Below are positions 57,098-63,638 of a DNA stretch of 64,000 bases, piece by piece. Source of the DNA: Treponemataceae bacterium (GTDB taxonomy: Bacteria; Spirochaetota; Spirochaetia; Treponematales; Rectinemataceae). A program made the translations under genes and the position numbers. Under the pieces are notes generated by a model that searched no databases, was not told the DNA's origin, and saw only the letters and a program-made list of their open reading frames with translations. Position 1 is the stretch's first letter. Each line of letters starts with the position of its first letter. The stretch is taken from the NCBI GenBank assembly GCA_963667725.2, contig CAXXHO010000003.1, positions 544,001 to 608,000 of the forward strand. Direction: 5' to 3'.

Positions 57098-58144
57098 TTA
57101 TCGGGCATTTTTAATGGTTCCGATATTTATCTTGAATATCATGTTCCTTAAAAAAGAATTGTAGATAAAGAGTCCCTTGATGTTTTTCATGAAGATATTT
57201 ATCCGAAGGCCGAGGATGCCTCTGTCGTACTTCTTGATATCGAAGGCGGAGGCCTCTTGCAGCGTTTTGGCCAGCGTATAGGCGCTTCGATAGGCGTAGC
57301 TCAATCCTTCCGACGAGCTTGGGCTGATAAGTCCGGCGGCTTCGCCTATCAACGCGACGCCGCCCTGGCCGGTTTTTATGTCCCTCAATCGCGGGCGCAG
57401 CAGATAGCATGCGTCCAGCCTTACTGGATCCCCCAAGCTATAGCCGTATGAAACCACTTCCTCGATCAATTTTTTGTACTTCTGTTTGGCGTTATTCCTT
57501 TCGTCAAAGGCGCCTCCGACCAGAACGGTGTCGCCCTTCGGTATCAGCCAAGAGTAAAAATCGCTTATGCCCCGGTCGAAAAACACGGCATAGTGGTTGA
57601 TGGATGTTTCCAGCTTATATTCTCCCTGAATTGCCAGATACTTTCTTATTTTGTGAAAATCGTCGTAGAGAGCTTTCCTCACCGATGAATGGGCGCCATC
57701 GGCGCCCACCAGGACGCTGCATGAATGTTCCGCCACTTCTCCGTTTTGTCGTATGGATACGATGATTTCGCCATTCTCTTGCCTATGCCCTAAATACTGC
57801 CCCCCGGCCATGTGCTTCACGTTGCTGGGCAATTTCTTGATAAGGTATTGATCGAGAAGCCTTCTGTTTATATTGGTGTAATGTCTTTGGTATTTGCCCT
57901 CGCGATTGGTCTCAAGGTCGATGGACCTGACGTAGAAGAGCTGTGGATCGGATATTATTTCCTTGGGAATGCCAAGGTCGAAGCGCGCGAGCATTTTCTG
58001 CGCGTCGGGCGCCACAAGACCACCGCAGCATTTTTCACGATCCGTGCTTTTTTCCACGAGAAGTATATTTAGGTGTCGTTCCGCCAATCGCGCGAAAGTC
58101 GCGCCGGCAGGACCCGCGCCAATAATGATAATATCAAACATCAT
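57098..58144 (-). CDS. FAD-dependent oxidoreductase, CbrA/YidS-like (geranylgeranyl reductase family)
   Basis: IIGAGPAG, CGGLVAPDAQ, GADGA.S.VR, YSW.IPK, IGEAAG.ISPSS.EG. Confidence 0.82.
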   Translation of the reverse strand: MMFDIIIIGAGPAGATFARLAERHLNILLVEKSTDREKCCGGLVAPDAQKMLARFDLGIPKEIISDPQLFYVRSIDLETNREGKYQRHYTNINRRLLDQYLIKKLPSNVKHMAGGQYLGHRQENGEIIVSIRQNGEVAEHSCSVLVGADGAHSSVRKALYDDFHKIRKYLAIQGEYKLETSINHYAVFFDRGISDFYSWLIPKGDTVLVGGAFDERNNAKQKYKKLIEEVVSYGYSLGDPVRLDACYLLRPRLRDIKTGQGGVALIGEAAGLISPSSSEGLSYAYRSAYTLAKTLQEASAFDIKKYDRGILGLRINIFMKNIKGLFIYNSFLRNMIFKINIGTIKNAR

Positions 58145-59508
58145 TTCAAGTACTCTATCGCCTTCTCATATACGGGATCGGTTCCGCTTTTCAGGTCCTC
58201 GATTGTTTCATAAACCCTGATATTGGGCAATATCGAAGCGCCTTCCTTGGCGAGCATTTCTTTATTGGCTCTTGCCCAGATATAGTGGGTTGTCGCGAAC
58301 TTTATTTTCGTATACGGCAAGGTGATAGGATCGGACATGAAACCATAGCGTATGGAACCGTTACCCACTTGATCGCCTATGATGATTCCCAAATCATTGT
58401 CTTTGATCGCGACGACGAAAAAAGTAGCCGAGCTGAATGTTTGACGACTCGTCAAAACCACGATTTTCCCCGTAAAGGAAAGTTCGCTGTTTTTAGGCAC
58501 CATAGGCCAAAGCCCTTTGGAAACTTGAACATTTCCATGCGGATAATTGGATTTCCAGCCATCGTAGACATAGAGATCCCTAGGCTTATCGATGATATAC
58601 GAAAGAAATTCATTGCACCAGAAGCTGTTTCCTCCGGAATTATTCCTTAGATCAAGAATAAGGGAGGCTGCTTTATTCTTTTGCGCGAAAGCGAATGCTT
58701 CATGCCAAAACTCAACATAGCCTGATTGAGGCAAAGAATTAAGCTGCACATACAAACTGTTCGAATCTGGAATAATGGCATACGTATTTCCGGGCTTTAT
58801 TTCAGTGGTATCGTTTCGGAATCTTGCCGGAATAGCGTATGCGCTTGAGGCAGAAGGGAAGGTACACCCTAAGGTAATATTCCTTTTCTCACCATTTTGC
58901 ACCACAGTAAGCTCAACTTCCTCTCTCTCGTTCATCAAGCCCAAGTGAAGAAGAAGGAAATTGGATAGCATCAGGTCAGGGCTATACATTTTCTTATAGT
59001 CATCCTGGCCTATATCCGCGGCTATAAACTGATTGGCGACTTTTTCGATATCTCCCACTAGCTTGCCGGATATGGCTACAATTTCTGAATACAGAATATC
59101 GGCGGCTGAGGGATCGGTAATAGAAGTAATCACAAGCTTTTTATTGAACCACCAAGCGCCAATACCCATAGATTTTCCAACCGATGTATTAATTCTCGTG
59201 TGTCCGTCTTGCAATGAAGTGATGAATGGAGCGATTTCGTAATAGAAATCAGAGGCATTACTGATATTCTTAAGCTTTTGCGCAGTCGTAGCGACTAGCT
59301 CGTCATAATCATGAAATGAAGTAGTCTGCAAGGGAGTCTTGTAAAAACCGGCATGGTTTTTACGAATGTAATCAGCAAGAATCAAGAAATCCTTCTGGTA
59401 AGGGTTTTCTGCATCAATTTCTTTTACGACATATGGATTTGACTTACAGGAAGATAAAATAACAAGCAGGACTATTAGAGAAAGAGTGATCCTTGATTGC
59501 ATTGGCAT
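58141..59508 (-). CDS. S41 family peptidase, probable lipoprotein
   Basis: Lipobox ILSSC, LQDGHT, LILDLRNNSGG, TFSSA. Confidence 0.87.
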   Translation of the reverse strand: MPMQSRITLSLIVLLVILSSCKSNPYVVKEIDAENPYQKDFLILADYIRKNHAGFYKTPLQTTSFHDYDELVATTAQKLKNISNASDFYYEIAPFITSLQDGHTRINTSVGKSMGIGAWWFNKKLVITSITDPSAADILYSEIVAISGKLVGDIEKVANQFIAADIGQDDYKKMYSPDLMLSNFLLLHLGLMNEREEVELTVVQNGEKRNITLGCTFPSASSAYAIPARFRNDTTEIKPGNTYAIIPDSNSLYVQLNSLPQSGYVEFWHEAFAFAQKNKAASLILDLRNNSGGNSFWCNEFLSYIIDKPRDLYVYDGWKSNYPHGNVQVSKGLWPMVPKNSELSFTGKIVVLTSRQTFSSATFFVVAIKDNDLGIIIGDQVGNGSIRYGFMSDPITLPYTKIKFATTHYIWARANKEMLAKEGASILPNIRVYETIEDLKSGTDPVYEKAIEYLK

Positions 59509-59522
59509 TATTCCTCCAATTT

Positions 59523-59582
59523 TCTTAGCTACTATTTAACCTGCGAAGCTACAGACTGAGTTAGGTTAAGTCATGGTTAGGC
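59523..59582 (-). mobile_element. Integron attC site 2 (60 bp, degenerate)
   Basis: Minus strand reads GCCTAAC-catgac-TTAACCTAACTCAG...CTTCGCAGGTTAA-atagta-GCTAAGA; shares TTAACCTGCGAAGC with attC1. Confidence 0.8.
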
Positions 59583-59884
59583 TGCTCAAGATAATCAACC
59601 GATTTACCCATGCGAAGTGCATAATCAATCTCGCTTCTTGTTGACGATCCAATATACCCACCGACGTTTATAACGAAAACACCGTCAGCCATGTCGATTT
59701 TACGCTTATGCATATCATCAAGCATGATCTTTTGTTCGTCATTTATTGTGTCGCCGGAGTGCCCGAAAAGTCCGACAGACACAACTATGACACCGTCAAG
59801 CGTTAATCTCTTCTGTTGTTCAATAAATTGTTCTTTAAAGCGTGTACTTCCGCAAAGCGTTATGATTTTATATTTTCCAATCAT
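59561..59884 (-). CDS. Cassette gene: small Rossmann-like protein (NDT-like/DUF4406-like)
   Basis: ITLCGSTRF...KIDMADGVFVINVGGYIGSSTRSEIDYA...GK; stop codon lies inside attC2. Confidence 0.7.
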   Translation of the reverse strand: MIGKYKIITLCGSTRFKEQFIEQQKRLTLDGVIVVSVGLFGHSGDTINDEQKIMLDDMHKRKIDMADGVFVINVGGYIGSSTRSEIDYALRMGKSVDYLEQPNHDLT

Positions 59885-59943
59885 TTTTTTTCCTTTACGA
59901 GTTATCCGAGCTTTTGCTGTATGCGAAACGTGGCAGAGCGTCC

Positions 59944-60056
59944 GCCTAACATTGGCTTAACCTGCGAAGCGTAATGGCGCGATTCTTGCCGAGGAGCGTA
60001 GCGACGACTAACAAGAATCGTGACATAGCTGAGTCAGGTTGAAGCAGTTGTTAGAA
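59944..60056 (-). mobile_element. Integron attC site 1 (113 bp)
   Basis: Minus strand reads TTCTAAC-aactgc-TTCAACCTGACTCAGC...GCTTCGCAGGTTAA-gccaat-GTTAGGC, with an extra base in L'' and an inner CGATTCTTG/CAAGAATCG stem; begins 3 nt after the upstream stop codon. Confidence 0.92.
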
Positions 60057-60059
60057 AGA

Positions 60060-61862
60060 TCATACTATTTTCATAAATAATTGTAAAATATCTAACGAAA
60101 GATGCTCTGGGAAATCGTTAATTACAGTATCAATAATATAATTTTTTAATATATTGTCCTCAGTTTTCCCTTTTTTAATTCTATTCAATTCTGGTATTTT
60201 TGTAACAATATATTCTTCTAAATCATGACCTTTCATAGAAAACCATTGACTAGGAACACTATAACTAGAGTGGTTTATTGTTTCATATCTAGTCATATCC
60301 TTTATATCGATATTTATAGTCGTCATTAAATAATTAATGGCATTTTGCATATCTTCTACTGCGATTCTTTTGCAATCAACATAATTATTTATATTCGATA
60401 ATCCAAAATCTGATGGCTTTTTAATATTTTCTCTAAGAAGTAATAAAAAAAGATATATTGGATCAAAAATATAATTTTCGATCGAATATCTATTATTTTC
60501 TCCTAAGACTTTAATATAAACGCTTTCAGTATTTTTTAAATCCCAATCAATTATACCGTATATTAAATCATTTCCTAATTCCCTAAGTTTTGTTACAATA
60601 TCTATAACATCTGTACAATTCGTTCCCAATCGGCTATGCGGTGGAATAAATTGCAGATGGACACTAGTATCACTTTTAACGATTCTGTATATCTTTTCAT
60701 AATATTCTACGTCATAATTATTCTCAACAAATATCTGGCGTCTTCTCTCAATATTAATACGCAGGTTTCTGATCTCACTAGTTAATATCCTAATTGCATT
60801 TTCATGATTAGATTTTATTGGTTTCTTAAGCGACTTATCCATTTCATAAATATATATACCATCTGCTACTGCAACGGTTGTTGGTGAATGTGTTGTAATA
60901 ATAACACTTACACCAGCACGTTTATATATATATTCATTTAATGATTCTATCAGTAATCTTGAAAACTCTGGATGCAAACCGGCATCTGGTTCATCAAGTA
61001 AAAGTAAATCTAATTTTGCTCCTGTCTCCGTAGCATTGTATATTGCCAGCGCTAAGGACATTAAAACTTTTTCTCCCGTTGATAAGTCATTTACTTGAAT
61101 TGATAATCCGGATTCTGGGTTGTTAAGCTTCAAGGTAAATTCCGACTCTTTATTTTGTGATAGAGGATCATTAACAATATAAGGAAGTTTTGCATTTCTT
61201 AATATTTCATTTATTAGATCCCATGGTTTAGGTCCATAAATTACAATAAACTCCTCATCCGATAATACATTATTTGTTTCGCCATATTCTTTATTCTTAA
61301 ACAATTGATATCTATTGTCTTCAAGTCGCGTGTGATATGCTTTGAAAACTGTAGCAAATTGACTTGCAAACATTTCTTCTGGAACAAGAGTATTAAAATC
61401 AAAATATTTACGGAATAAGTCTTCTGTCTGCTCTTCTACTGATAAATGTGATTTTTCTAAAACAGCTTTTATTGCTCTTTTATGATTTGCATCGCCTATA
61501 TGGTTCATCAGCCACTCTATCTCATTTTGCCCTTGTGGAAGCTGTCCTTGTTTCTTTTTCAGTAAATAACTATCTCTTACTGGACTAAACTGATTCCATA
61601 TATTTTTTACATGATTAATGATTGTGTTATATTCACATTTTGAATCAACATTTGGATTCAATCCATTAAATGGTATATACTTAATTTTGCTTGCTTTCTT
61701 CCCATCGACAATCACAGTTGTTTTACTTTCTTGTACTAGTGATTCTAATAAATGGCTTTTGCCCGCACCGTTCTTTCCTGTTAAGATACAAAAGTTTGGT
61801 AATTGAACATCCACACCTACTGGAATAGACTTATGTTCTTTTTTAACAATAATATTTATCAT
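60060..61862 (-). CDS. Cassette gene: ABC-type (AAA_15/AAA_21) ATPase fused to a TOPRIM-like (OLD/DUF4435-like) domain
   Basis: GKNGAGKS, LSTGEK, LLLLDEPD, TTHSP; IFVE..YD, DWD, YSIENY; very AT-rich. Confidence 0.85.
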   Translation of the reverse strand: MINIIVKKEHKSIPVGVDVQLPNFCILTGKNGAGKSHLLESLVQESKTTVIVDGKKASKIKYIPFNGLNPNVDSKCEYNTIINHVKNIWNQFSPVRDSYLLKKKQGQLPQGQNEIEWLMNHIGDANHKRAIKAVLEKSHLSVEEQTEDLFRKYFDFNTLVPEEMFASQFATVFKAYHTRLEDNRYQLFKNKEYGETNNVLSDEEFIVIYGPKPWDLINEILRNAKLPYIVNDPLSQNKESEFTLKLNNPESGLSIQVNDLSTGEKVLMSLALAIYNATETGAKLDLLLLDEPDAGLHPEFSRLLIESLNEYIYKRAGVSVIITTHSPTTVAVADGIYIYEMDKSLKKPIKSNHENAIRILTSEIRNLRINIERRRQIFVENNYDVEYYEKIYRIVKSDTSVHLQFIPPHSRLGTNCTDVIDIVTKLRELGNDLIYGIIDWDLKNTESVYIKVLGENNRYSIENYIFDPIYLFLLLLRENIKKPSDFGLSNINNYVDCKRIAVEDMQNAINYLMTTINIDIKDMTRYETINHSSYSVPSQWFSMKGHDLEEYIVTKIPELNRIKKGKTEDNILKNYIIDTVINDFPEHLSLDILQLFMKIV

Positions 61863-61880
61863 AAAACTTCTCCCGTTTTG

Positions 61881-61905
61881 ATTCTTTCTAACAATAGTTA
61901 TAAAG
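61881..61905 (-). mobile_element. Cassette insertion point (attI-like or secondary core site)
   Basis: Minus strand reads TTTATAACTATTG^TTAGAAAGA, complementary to the TCTTTCTAAC end of the same cassette. Confidence 0.7.
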
Positions 61906-61920
61906 GTCTATCCTATAAGT

Positions 61921-62385
61921 TCATCTTCTTAATCCTTGATCCATATTCTTTAGCATCACCAGCGCCCTATCCAACCCATCTGCAAACAGTTTAGTTTCTT
62001 TGACCGTCCTATGTGACCCTTTTGGTGAAGATGGCACAATGCCCAAAAATCGAAGCTCTTCAGCTGCATCCCGTAGCGAACGGCGTTCGGAGGCGTTTTC
62101 TTTGGTGTAGAGCTCGCCGCGGTCGTTGATTACGGCAATGCCGGATTCCGCGAGGCGCTCGGCGAAGGGAATGTCGCGGGTGACGACGAGGTCGCCCAAC
62201 GCGGCATTCGCTTCGATAAAATGGTCGGCGGCGTCGGGTCCCGCTGGTACGAGGGTTGCGAGAGCGGGGGGCACGTCGGGAAGCTTGCGGGCAGAGACGA
62301 AGCGCACGGGGATGTTTGCGCCACGGCGCACGAGGATAGGGCGGATGTCGCGCGGGGCGCTGTCCCCATCCACCCAGATCGTCAT
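61921..62385 (-). CDS. YaiI/YqxD (DUF188) family protein
   Basis: IWVDGDSAP, DAAD, DLVVTRDIPFA, RGELYT.EN. Confidence 0.9.
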   Translation of the reverse strand: MTIWVDGDSAPRDIRPILVRRGANIPVRFVSARKLPDVPPALATLVPAGPDAADHFIEANAALGDLVVTRDIPFAERLAESGIAVINDRGELYTKENASERRSLRDAAEELRFLGIVPSSPKGSHRTVKETKLFADGLDRALVMLKNMDQGLRR

Positions 62386-63638
62386 GGCGCCGCCTCGGGA
62401 TCTAAATGAGAGGAAGCGAGGGAGCCTACGCGAGCGCGATAGACCGTGCACGGACCGCGCAGGGAATAGGATTTGCAGGCCGCGCCTACGAAGACGGATT
62501 CGCCTCGCTTGAGGGCGATGGATGGATTGGCGCCGGAAGCGCAGTCGATGGTGGCCTGGCCCGCGGTGCAAAGAAGAATTTCGGGGCCGGAAGGCTTCAC
62601 TTCGGCGTGTTTCTGGTCGGAAAGATCGAAACGAGAGAGGGCGAATTCGCGAGCCGGCGTAGGCCAGAAAACCTCGCGCGCGCCGGAAATACCGGCGACG
62701 GGCTCGATGAGCGTAGGCTCGGCCTTGAAATCGAGGGTGCCGAGGAGATCGTCAACATCGACATGCTTGTGTGTGAGCCCGCCCCGGATCACGTTGTCTG
62801 AAGTGGCCATAATCTCGAGAATCGTGCCCTTCAGATACGCGTGCATGACGCCCGCGGGAATATAGATGCCCTGCCCGGGCTCGAGAAAAAGCACGTTCAT
62901 GAAAAGCGGGGAAATCGCCCCCGGATCGTGTGGATAGTGCTGAAAGCACATAAGGACGGTTTGTCCGGCGATCCTCGCGCCCTCGTCCTCACTCTTCGCG
63001 AGATCCCGCGCGCGGGAAGTCGCTTTGATTTCGAGCAACGTCCTTTCCTTATCGCGCAGGGCGAGGGCCTTCCCCAGAAGCCCGCGCAGCGAGGCCTCAG
63101 AGTCGAGGGCAGAAAAACCGAAATACCCGCAAAGCTCGGGACCCAGCATTTCCGCGGCCTCGCCCGCGCTCCTAAAACCGCAGAGCGCCGAAAAGGGCGA
63201 GAGGGCGACCGCCAGCTCGGGCTTGTGGTTCCTGTCCTTGTAGTCGCGCTCGGGCGCCGATCGCGGCAGGCCGCGTTTTTCCTCGCGCTCGAAACCGATC
63301 GCGGCGCGCGCCTTGTCAGGATGCACCTGAATGGAGAGGGGCATCGAGGCGGAAAGCGCCTTGAAAAGGAAGGGCAGGTCGTCGAACTCGGCGAAAACCT
63401 CCTCGCCGAGACTCTTCATCGGATTGTCGTGGATGTACTTCGGGAGGGGGAGAGCCTTGCCGTCGGGCAGTAGCAGAGAGGAGGGAGCGTCCGGATGCGA
63501 GCCCATCCAGCATTCGGCCGAAGGCTTCCCTGAGTCGGTGACGACGCCGGCGTAGAGGGAAAGTCCGTTATAGCTCCCCCACGCGTAGTTGCGTATCGTG
63601 TTTTCGAGCTTGAAAACGGGGGCCGAGGTATCTTTCAT
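62382..63638 (-). CDS. manA: Mannose-6-phosphate isomerase, class I
   Basis: YAWGS, AECWMGSHP, PLSIQVHP, DRNHKPEL, HAYL.G, EIMATSDNVIRGGLT. Confidence 0.95.
   Translation of the reverse strand: MKDTSAPVFKLENTIRNYAWGSYNGLSLYAGVVTDSGKPSAECWMGSHPDAPSSLLLPDGKALPLPKYIHDNPMKSLGEEVFAEFDDLPFLFKALSASMPLSIQVHPDKARAAIGFEREEKRGLPRSAPERDYKDRNHKPELAVALSPFSALCGFRSAGEAAEMLGPELCGYFGFSALDSEASLRGLLGKALALRDKERTLLEIKATSRARDLAKSEDEGARIAGQTVLMCFQHYPHDPGAISPLFMNVLFLEPGQGIYIPAGVMHAYLKGTILEIMATSDNVIRGGLTHKHVDVDDLLGTLDFKAEPTLIEPVAGISGAREVFWPTPAREFALSRFDLSDQKHAEVKPSGPEILLCTAGQATIDCASGANPSIALKRGESVFVGAACKSYSLRGPCTVYRARVGSLASSHLDPEAAP

Follow-up and report, generated by a model that had tools for sequence, protein, structure and literature searches.

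A stand-alone ABC ATPase with a predicted AriB-type TOPRIM domain, carried by an integron cassette behind yaiI in a Treponemataceae genome and belonging to a fused PARIS-like clade

We analyzed a 64,000-nucleotide stretch (the window) of the genome of a Treponemataceae bacterium and found that it carries, in a complete integron gene cassette inserted behind yaiI, a gene for a single-chain protein in which an ABC ATPase precedes a TOPRIM domain. The C-terminal domain is of the AriB/DUF4435 type and not of the OLD or GajA type, and since it has also kept the acidic residues of AriB, the protein is fused PARIS-like (AriAB-like). In the sample that we studied its relatives form a third fused clade, apart from the published clades Merge_1 and Merge_2. 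An anti-phage role of some kind is probable. The coordinates of the features are given in Table 1.

Table 1. Features of the cassette, its gene and its flanks (positions are those of the window).
Feature	Position	Strand	Basis
Single-chain ABC ATPase and AriB-type TOPRIM protein, 600 aa (P0001)	60060..61862	minus	translation, Pfam, PADLOC, fold models
Walker A GKNGAGKS (residues 29-36)	61755..61778	minus	translation
Helical insert in ATPase (about residues 70-225)	61188..61655	minus	AF2 secondary structure
ABC signature LSTGEK (260-265)	61068..61085	minus	translation, conservation
Walker B / D-loop LLLLDEPD (286-293)	60984..61007	minus	translation, conservation
H-loop TTHSP (323-327)	60882..60896	minus	translation, conservation
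AriB/DUF4435-type TOPRIM nuclease domain (366-600)	60063..60767	minus	profiles, domain model, structure search, alignment
Complete integron gene cassette, 1,942 bp, this gene only	59950..61891	minus	complementary ends GTTAGAAAGA / TCTTTCTAAC; empty site in sister genome G001
attC, 113 bp, R'' TTCTAAC ... R' GTTAGGC	59944..60056	minus	BLAST to the genome's large arrays, pattern scan, fold
Cassette insertion site: AT-rich flank and G/TT core 28 bp past the yaiI stop	61886..61920	minus	sister-genome and attI comparison
yaiI/yqxD (DUF188) gene, conserved left flank	61921..62385	minus	PF02639 76.6 bits; 40/41 genomes searched
107-aa ORF of older second cassette	59561..59884	minus	ORF list, locus comparison

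The initial annotation had described a set of ABC ATPase motifs split by a long insert, a TOPRIM-like C-terminal region and the most AT-rich gene in the window, and each of these descriptions was borne out. All of the named ATPase motifs could be read from the translation, as could the TOPRIM motifs FVE (378-380), DWD (439-441) and YSIENY (459-464), and among the stop-to-stop frames of at least 150 codons in the window the ORF had the lowest GC content (29.7%), followed by one at 42.1%. Pfam identified AAA_21 (75.4 bits, cut-off 27) and AAA_15 (58.1 bits, cut-off 32.1) in the 600-residue protein. An AF2 model of the full protein, built from 72 sequences, had a mean pLDDT of 88 and comprised an ABC core, a mostly helical insert between Walker A and the signature (H78-H223) and a separate C-terminal alpha/beta domain. 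AriA and P2 OLD suggest by analogy that the insert is a sensor or oligomerization region. Residues K35, S261, G263, E264, D290, E291, H325, E380, D439, D441 and H546 were invariant in 80 of 80 diverse relatives, as were G29, N31, G32 and G34 of Walker A, and the ABC and TOPRIM motifs are therefore not a product of chance. In each of two runs of the probable source sample, one 13,045-base contig covered positions 59000-62800 with zero differences; as these contigs, which are not independent support, cover the region unchanged, misassembly is unlikely.

The type of the C-terminal domain was assigned from profiles, structure models and an alignment. The C-terminal 240 residues of the window protein matched no Pfam family, with DUF4435 (PF14491) absent at E ≤ 10, and the sole PADLOC match to this segment was AriAB (E 1.8e-5). 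Across the C-terminal domains of 77 family members, DUF4435 matched 39 at E ≤ 0.1 (best 1e-6) and OLD-like_TOPRIM (PF20469) matched two at the same threshold (best 0.028), while the PADLOC AriAB and AriB models matched 57 and 53, respectively, at E ≤ 0.01. PF14491 is also annotated in the database on some partial relatives. Sequence searches of the PDB returned only generic ABC, UvrA, Rad50, PtuA and AriA ATPase matches and nothing meaningful for the C-terminal domain.

Fold searches with the whole protein were filled by ATPase matches and for this reason the TOPRIM domain was folded alone (pLDDT 92, pTM 0.88). In a Foldseek search AriB was the sole match of this model at E ≤ 0.001 (8ux9_A, E 3.5e-4, prob 0.99), and a second AriB chain, 8v46_D, followed at E 1.4e-3. 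VIA-align against 48,161 chains gave AriB 8v46_D a Z of 11.6 (rmsd 4.0, 185 aligned), with lower scores for Bp OLD (7.0), PH0156 (6.9), Ts OLD (6.9), Eco8 (5.6) and GajA (5.5), and the top matches in the ESM Atlas were DUF4435 clusters (score 0.95). The metal residues reported for AriB are E26, D30, D88, E90 and E122 (PMC11464382). The residues were matched through a 69-row alignment with AriB homologs, rather than by superposing single residues on the E. coli AriB structure. Acidic residues occupied the columns of E380, D384, D439, D441 and E462 in all 32 family rows, all 13 merged-clade rows and 18-22 of the 22 two-gene AriB rows. In the same alignment G545-H546 corresponded to G-K/H in 21 of the 22 two-gene AriB rows.

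Two observations speak against a simple PARIS reading: the ATPase part scored lower against AriA (Z 12.3) than against PtuA and SMC (14.0), and the PADLOC bit scores of the full-length protein were alike across MAD3, retron I-B, AriA and AriAB. For the full-length protein MAD3 (84 bits) and the retron I-B ATPase-Toprim model (82 bits, spanning 9-469) were slightly above AriAB (78 bits on PDLC02981, where the best stretch was 286-540 of 694); PDLC02982 was absent among the 25 PADLOC matches listed. Among the 80 diverse members, 35 reached E ≤ 4e-23 on the retron I-B model and 15 on the AriAB model, and about 80 bits on the AriAB model was reached by 15 of the 80. These full-length matches are driven mainly by the ATPase. 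The thresholds reported for the merged-AriAB HMMs are 80 for AAA_15 with DUF4435 and 20 for AAA_21 with DUF4435 (PMC9122126).

The family is large and patchily distributed. A word-indexed search found 1,144 relatives among 7,995 candidates scored, and a profile search of 1.84 billion representatives found 1,531 clusters at E ≤ 1e-30; the conservation counts given here rest on 80 diverse full-length members of 580-677 residues. Of 80 loci, four (L033, L045, L075 and L085) were excluded from alignment A2. Homolog loci in GTDB genomes came from at least nine phyla, 44 of the 79 being from Bacteroidota, and the gene had a lower GC content than its flanks at 72 of 77 loci. Twenty-seven viral-contig loci carry a family gene, as do four plasmid records, in which it is labelled simply "AAA family ATPase" or "ATP-binding protein". 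Zero homologs were found in 50,697 phage records, or in E. coli genomes searched with the DNA of a Phytobacter homolog, and a metagenome scan with the single protein returned only two unrelated short ATPase matches. A search of 68 further genomes from the host family found no homolog at E ≤ 1e-10, and 301 genomes of the host phylum yielded the host's own copy and one weak short match (E 7e-4) only. Members are marked by RRQ[VI]FVE, C416, R458, Q506, GH-x-LE and DEPDA.

Fusions of AriA and AriB were first noted by Rousset et al. 2022 with dedicated HMMs (PMC9122126), and Burman et al. 2024 reported two merged clades, Merge_1 and Merge_2, from one fusion event (PMC11464382). To place the family we used a comparison set of 38 DUF4435 loci from three phyla, 37 of which entered a TOPRIM tree of 69 rows and 228 columns (L152, a contig row, and L182, whose motif is missing, were excluded). 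The 32 family rows formed one side of a branch with support 97/99, 10 Merge_2-like rows stood apart at 100/99 and two of three Merge_1-like rows at 100/98, in a tree whose deeper nodes were without resolution and whose groups we assigned to the published clade names by visual comparison with the source table. A quick tree of the ATPase core, with one row per merged clade, placed the family on its own branch and grouped the fused forms weakly (support 77). The bona fide fused members L127, L129 and L130 scored 314-639 bits on the PADLOC AriAB models, and BLASTP of the window protein against 15 fused DUF4435 proteins gave at most 48.5 bits. The family strings RRQVFVE, RRQIFVE, GEKVLMSL and LSTGEK had zero occurrences in the source table of Burman et al. 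Figure 6, which was covered to the first 400 characters per cell, such that divergent members could be missed. On this sample the family lies outside both Merge_1 and Merge_2.

A single origin of all fused forms was not rejected (AU p 0.168) and, given this value and the weak grouping of the fused forms, an independent fusion is not established. The earlier suggestion of a possibly fused PARIS-like protein can thus be narrowed to a clade separate from both published ones, and its alternative, a new family, was overstated, as the family is a novel branch of AriAB-type proteins. A genuine two-gene form was considered and rejected: a single in-frame stop splits the gene at L085 and at L052, and the breaks at L061 and L075 fall within the ATPase. 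Short family matches look like fragments, judged from their names and the lengths of their contigs. In the chiefly open-access literature that we searched we found neither an experiment on a fused AriAB nor any account of this clade, for which a recent name may exist.

The genomic context of the family was assessed from 242 neighboring ORFs of at least 120 residues within two ORFs of the gene at 79 loci. Consistent with the initial annotation of a stand-alone gene, no neighbor family recurred at more than five of the 79 loci, and the 242 ORFs included no retron RT, no GajB and no other fixed partner. PADLOC at E ≤ 1e-12 matched 57 of the neighbors (52 when five accessory-type matches were left out), many of them as candidate (PDC) systems, and by a hand count established systems (R-M, Lamassu, SIR2-HerA, CBASS, AbiE and others) were present at about 20 of the 79 loci. 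Control ORFs, taken from the window and from the yaiI regions of relatives and so not phylum-matched, gave two matches in 100, both to part of an ATPase domain (mad3). R-M genes were the commonest defence neighbors (L009, L012-L014, L016-L018, L032, L048, L050, L068 and L083), and one plasmid match (H3) adjoins a type I R-M system. One neighbor matched RT-Protease_XI over profile positions 328-486 of 506 only, which we read as the protease part. About 50 of the 79 loci had zero defence matches within two genes.

Comparison with known systems places the protein nearest to fused AriAB, with which it shares an AAA_15/AAA_21 ABC ATPase and an AriB/DUF4435-type TOPRIM domain in one stand-alone chain and the same acidic set. 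It differs from the fused AriAB models (PDLC02981 and PDLC02982) in its separate TOPRIM clade and in reaching 78 bits over part of one model instead of 314-639, and from the fused AriAB definition in that the window protein falls below the DUF4435 (PF14491) cut-off. Two-gene PARIS, which is the form treated in PMC11381338, supplies the best structural match of the nuclease domain (8ux9, 8v46). However, PARIS is reported to be a 6:3 complex whose activation needs AriB release and dimerization, which a fusion cannot undergo (PMC11464382; 10.1101/2024.01.02.573835). Class 1 OLD (P2 Old, Ts OLD 6p74), GajA and retron I-B (Eco8) are likewise single-chain ABC ATPase and TOPRIM proteins, and class 1 OLD is also stand-alone, but their TOPRIM domains resemble this one weakly (Z 5.5-7.0) and the protein has no GajB or RT partner. 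Membership of class 1 OLD was rejected, as the layout fits but PF20469 matched only 2/77 domains and the OLD Z scores were 6.9-7.0 against 11.6 for AriB. Gabija was rejected, there being no GajB UvrD-like helicase in the cassette or among the 242 neighbors, as was retron type I-B, since the cassette fits one gene only and none of the 242 neighbors is an RT.

The gene lies in what has all the properties of an integron cassette: a single ORF, a G/TT core (the slash marks the crossover) and an attC, complementary ends, and an empty site that is restored upon removal. The upstream core, G/TTAGAAAGA at 61892/61891, complements the R'' arm TCTTTCTAAC exactly, and the attC belongs to the genome's own attC family, its bottom strand folding at -22.2 kcal/mol (z -2.89). 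It is followed by the second cassette, whose 107-residue ORF matched no Pfam family better than E 0.11, and then by a degraded attC-like remnant at about 59530-59575. The three IntI of the genome that were above the cut-off occur only on contigs C1, C5 and C7 and not on C3, which bears the gene. Each precedes an attI-like core, which ends in CTGTCCAATAAAT/GTTAG, and then a large array; intI and cassettes share one orientation, a layout of the Treponema type that suggests a spirochaete host. An attI core adjoining a G/TT crossover was found only on those three contigs, and the left flank of the cassette was identical to attI at 16-17 of 34 positions. We therefore rejected an integron attI position for this cassette, which has neither intI nor attI beside it. 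The "first cassette" of the initial annotation is accordingly a real one in the front position, but not that of an integron platform.

In the sister genome G001 the yaiI flank passes directly into G/TTAGGCGGACGCTCT, the sequence past our attC crossover, and exactly one cassette has therefore been added at the front. This accords with the earlier claim of a most recently acquired position, with the correction that the site is an integrase-free secondary site and not the attI of an integron. A second relative, G002 (about 6% contamination), carries the locus in three versions, which differ in the cassettes at the front: one with a TIR-like protein (a weak TIR match), Shedu (480 bits) and a 241-residue protein, one with proteins of 296, 137 and 317 residues and one with a 1,086-residue NACHT-like protein. 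In G005 and G021, which are more distantly related, yaiI is not followed by a cassette. Five versions of the locus, in three genomes of one genus, thus each have a different front cassette, several of them defence-type. Complete cassettes are reported to integrate at attG sites outside integrons (10.1101/2022.09.11.507474), and by analogy the site after yaiI may be a natural attG-type hotspot, loaded in trans, probably by one of the three IntI of the genome. Like the SALIN/CALIN elements at attG in that report, this is a complete cassette at a GWT core outside an integron with IntI elsewhere in the genome; unlike them, it occupies one natural site that has been used repeatedly, in five versions with several defence-type cassettes. 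Contigs of the probable source sample, an assembly type that drops rare variants, contained no joint skipping the whole cassette. At other homolog loci a strict attC-fold test, which was too strict, passed 1/78, and a test of end complementarity called 11/75 cassette-like against 167/5,550 cross-pairs (3%).

The ATG lies 58 bp past the yaiI stop and is preceded by an RBS-like GGGAGAAG. A sigma-70 scan of the minus strand upstream of the gene found no promoter-like site, and no terminator-like site was found between the yaiI stop and the ATG. As neither kind of site was found between yaiI and the ATG, read-through is the simplest route to expression; its likely source is the yaiI gene, and the cassette would probably be read from the manA-yaiI transcript.

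Our preferred reading, to which we give about an even chance, is a stand-alone abortive-infection system in which ATP gates the nuclease, which is probably a tRNase. Until a phage signal is received, the ATPase would keep the nuclease closed; the nuclease would then cut host tRNA and halt translation. Based on its motifs the ABC dimer is predicted to bind ATP, and the helical insert, from the precedents of AriA and P2 OLD, would sense the trigger, for which a DNA-mimic protein as in PARIS and aberrant DNA as in P2 OLD are candidates. Because a 1:1 fusion cannot release its AriB-type domain as two-gene PARIS does, we propose that the switch is a change of conformation or of oligomeric state, of the kind described for OLD and GajA. 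Of these P2 OLD, a relative that is likewise one chain, has been reported as a tRNase that is opened by a tetramer-to-dimer change (10.64898/2026.07.10.737580). The five acidic residues identified by alignment would carry out two-metal cleavage. The putative substrate, tRNA, is suggested by P2 OLD and by AriB, which is reported to cut tRNA-Lys (PMC12409363).

The same defence role would be served if the activated TOPRIM domain instead nicked or degraded phage or host DNA, as GajA and some class 1 OLD proteins do. We consider this somewhat unlikely. The layout of a single-chain ABC ATPase and TOPRIM is that of class 1 OLD, GajA and Eco8, and the retron I-B ATPase-Toprim match, which spans 9-469, is the commonest strong match in the family (35/80). 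OLD-type DNA cleavage has been reviewed, with GajA listed as DNA-cutting (PMC10568477), and a Vibrio class 1 OLD is reported to cut DNA. However, both the fold and the sequence of the nuclease are clearly nearer to AriB than to OLD or GajA, and P2 OLD is now described as having tRNase activity with no detectable activity on dsDNA (10.64898/2026.07.10.737580). A narrower version of the tRNase model is a back-up (anti-anti-restriction) guard that acts only once R-M has been disabled by a phage, in the way that PARIS responds to Ocr, in which case the effect of a lone cassette would depend on the R-M of the host and on DNA-mimic proteins. The frequency of R-M genes beside family loci and the reported sensing of Ocr by PARIS (PMC11464382; 10.1101/2024.01.02.573835) are in keeping with such a guard, but R-M adjacency is common to most defence genes, the ATPase resembles AriA no more than PtuA or SMC, and the trigger pocket of AriA is reported to form in a hexamer, with pore residues that are poorly conserved (PMC11464382). 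We regard the guard as decidedly unlikely.

A role outside defence, either as a silent or selfish passenger cassette or as an ATPase-nuclease with a cellular function in repair or RNA maturation, is in our estimation unlikely. The intact ORF and catalytic residues, and the patchy, low-GC, mobile occurrence of the family across nine phyla with defence-island neighbors, argue against it. An archaeal OLD-family ATPase has been reported to have a cell-cycle role (PMC12796447), and no promoter consensus was found on the coding strand upstream of our gene, which would suit a silent cassette, but the RBS-like GGGAGAAG and the short distance from yaiI, in which no terminator-like site was found, would allow expression.

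ABC-TOPRIM immunity and integron defence cassettes are both established, and the finding would come as no great surprise to a specialist; two 2025 Science papers on integron defence cassettes are cited in 10.64898/2026.03.17.712381. A more far-reaching interpretation, which we put forward only tentatively and consider doubtful, is that the family is a third, independently fused PARIS-like lineage with an AriB-type tRNase that is switched on without release, delivered to an integrase-free "defence slot" loaded in trans. If true, a lineage as widespread as this one would be unnamed and its activation mechanism undescribed, and the slot would lie behind a housekeeping operon. The site itself would be a naturally occurring secondary (attG-like) hotspot at which defence cassettes have inserted repeatedly with no integrase nearby. 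The 2023 PADLOC models score the family only partly, and a family HMM would bring into annotation many defence genes that are now missed in part. What is understood of PARIS is a release mechanism involving two proteins; its fused forms have been catalogued, with no tests found in the literature that we searched. The family offers a large, clean single-gene set in which to study the restraint and the activation of an AriB-type nuclease that stays tethered.

Behind the front cassette at the yaiI site, the 107-aa ORF (window 59561-59884) was conserved: three versions of the locus carried it in second position. In the sister genome with the empty site it was mostly deleted. Its only family hint was a weak one, to SLOG (LDcluster4, E 0.11). 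In one version of the locus in genome G002 (L120), a full attC lay immediately before the S41 peptidase gene, and for this reason the peptidase may be an old, settled cassette, as perhaps may the FAD oxidoreductase. The other cassettes at this site in G002 (L120-L122) encoded a 384-aa protein resembling TIR proteins, Shedu SduA (480 bits), a NACHT-like 1,086-aa protein, a product with a weak match to PD-T7-4, and three low-GC ORFs without an assigned family.

Features in and beyond the window (G000, the genome carrying the window; C, its contigs; L, loci)
Feature	Coordinates	Remark
Shortened attC-like remnant	window 59530-59575	between 107-aa ORF and S41 peptidase gene
S41 peptidase gene	window 58141-59508
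FAD oxidoreductase	window 57098-58144	after S41 peptidase gene
Cassettes at yaiI site, G002	L120:5034-8345; L121:3313-5827; L122:3002-6262
Integrons, G000	C5:405171-550000; C1:385-33680; C7:38580-63198	three, separate, outside window
Integrase-free attC clusters, G000	C3:352942-359549; 519672-527456; 1636345-1653908	3, 4 and 9 matches
Fused ATPase-DUF4435 proteins	L150:1372-3150; L161:1372-3369

A pattern scan of G000 gave 266 attC matches, against 16 in the shuffled genome. Each of the three integrons had intI facing the cassettes and shared an attI-like core, with approximately 165 (C5), 39 (C1) and 31 (C7) matches. One of the further integrase-free clusters on the window's contig was approximately 17-25 kb left of the window; no similarity was found between the yaiI site and the fronts of these three clusters.

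Eleven family homologs, from Bacteroidota and Ignavibacteriota loci (L021-L030, L060-L063, L086), were in units that resemble cassettes and whose GTT...AAC ends are complementary (e.g., GTTGGCG/CGCCAAC), which points to integron-like arrays in these phyla. The two other fused proteins (L150, L161) were outside both published merged clades of fused PARIS and outside the family of the window protein, and therefore additional fused ATPase-DUF4435 lineages may exist beyond these groups.
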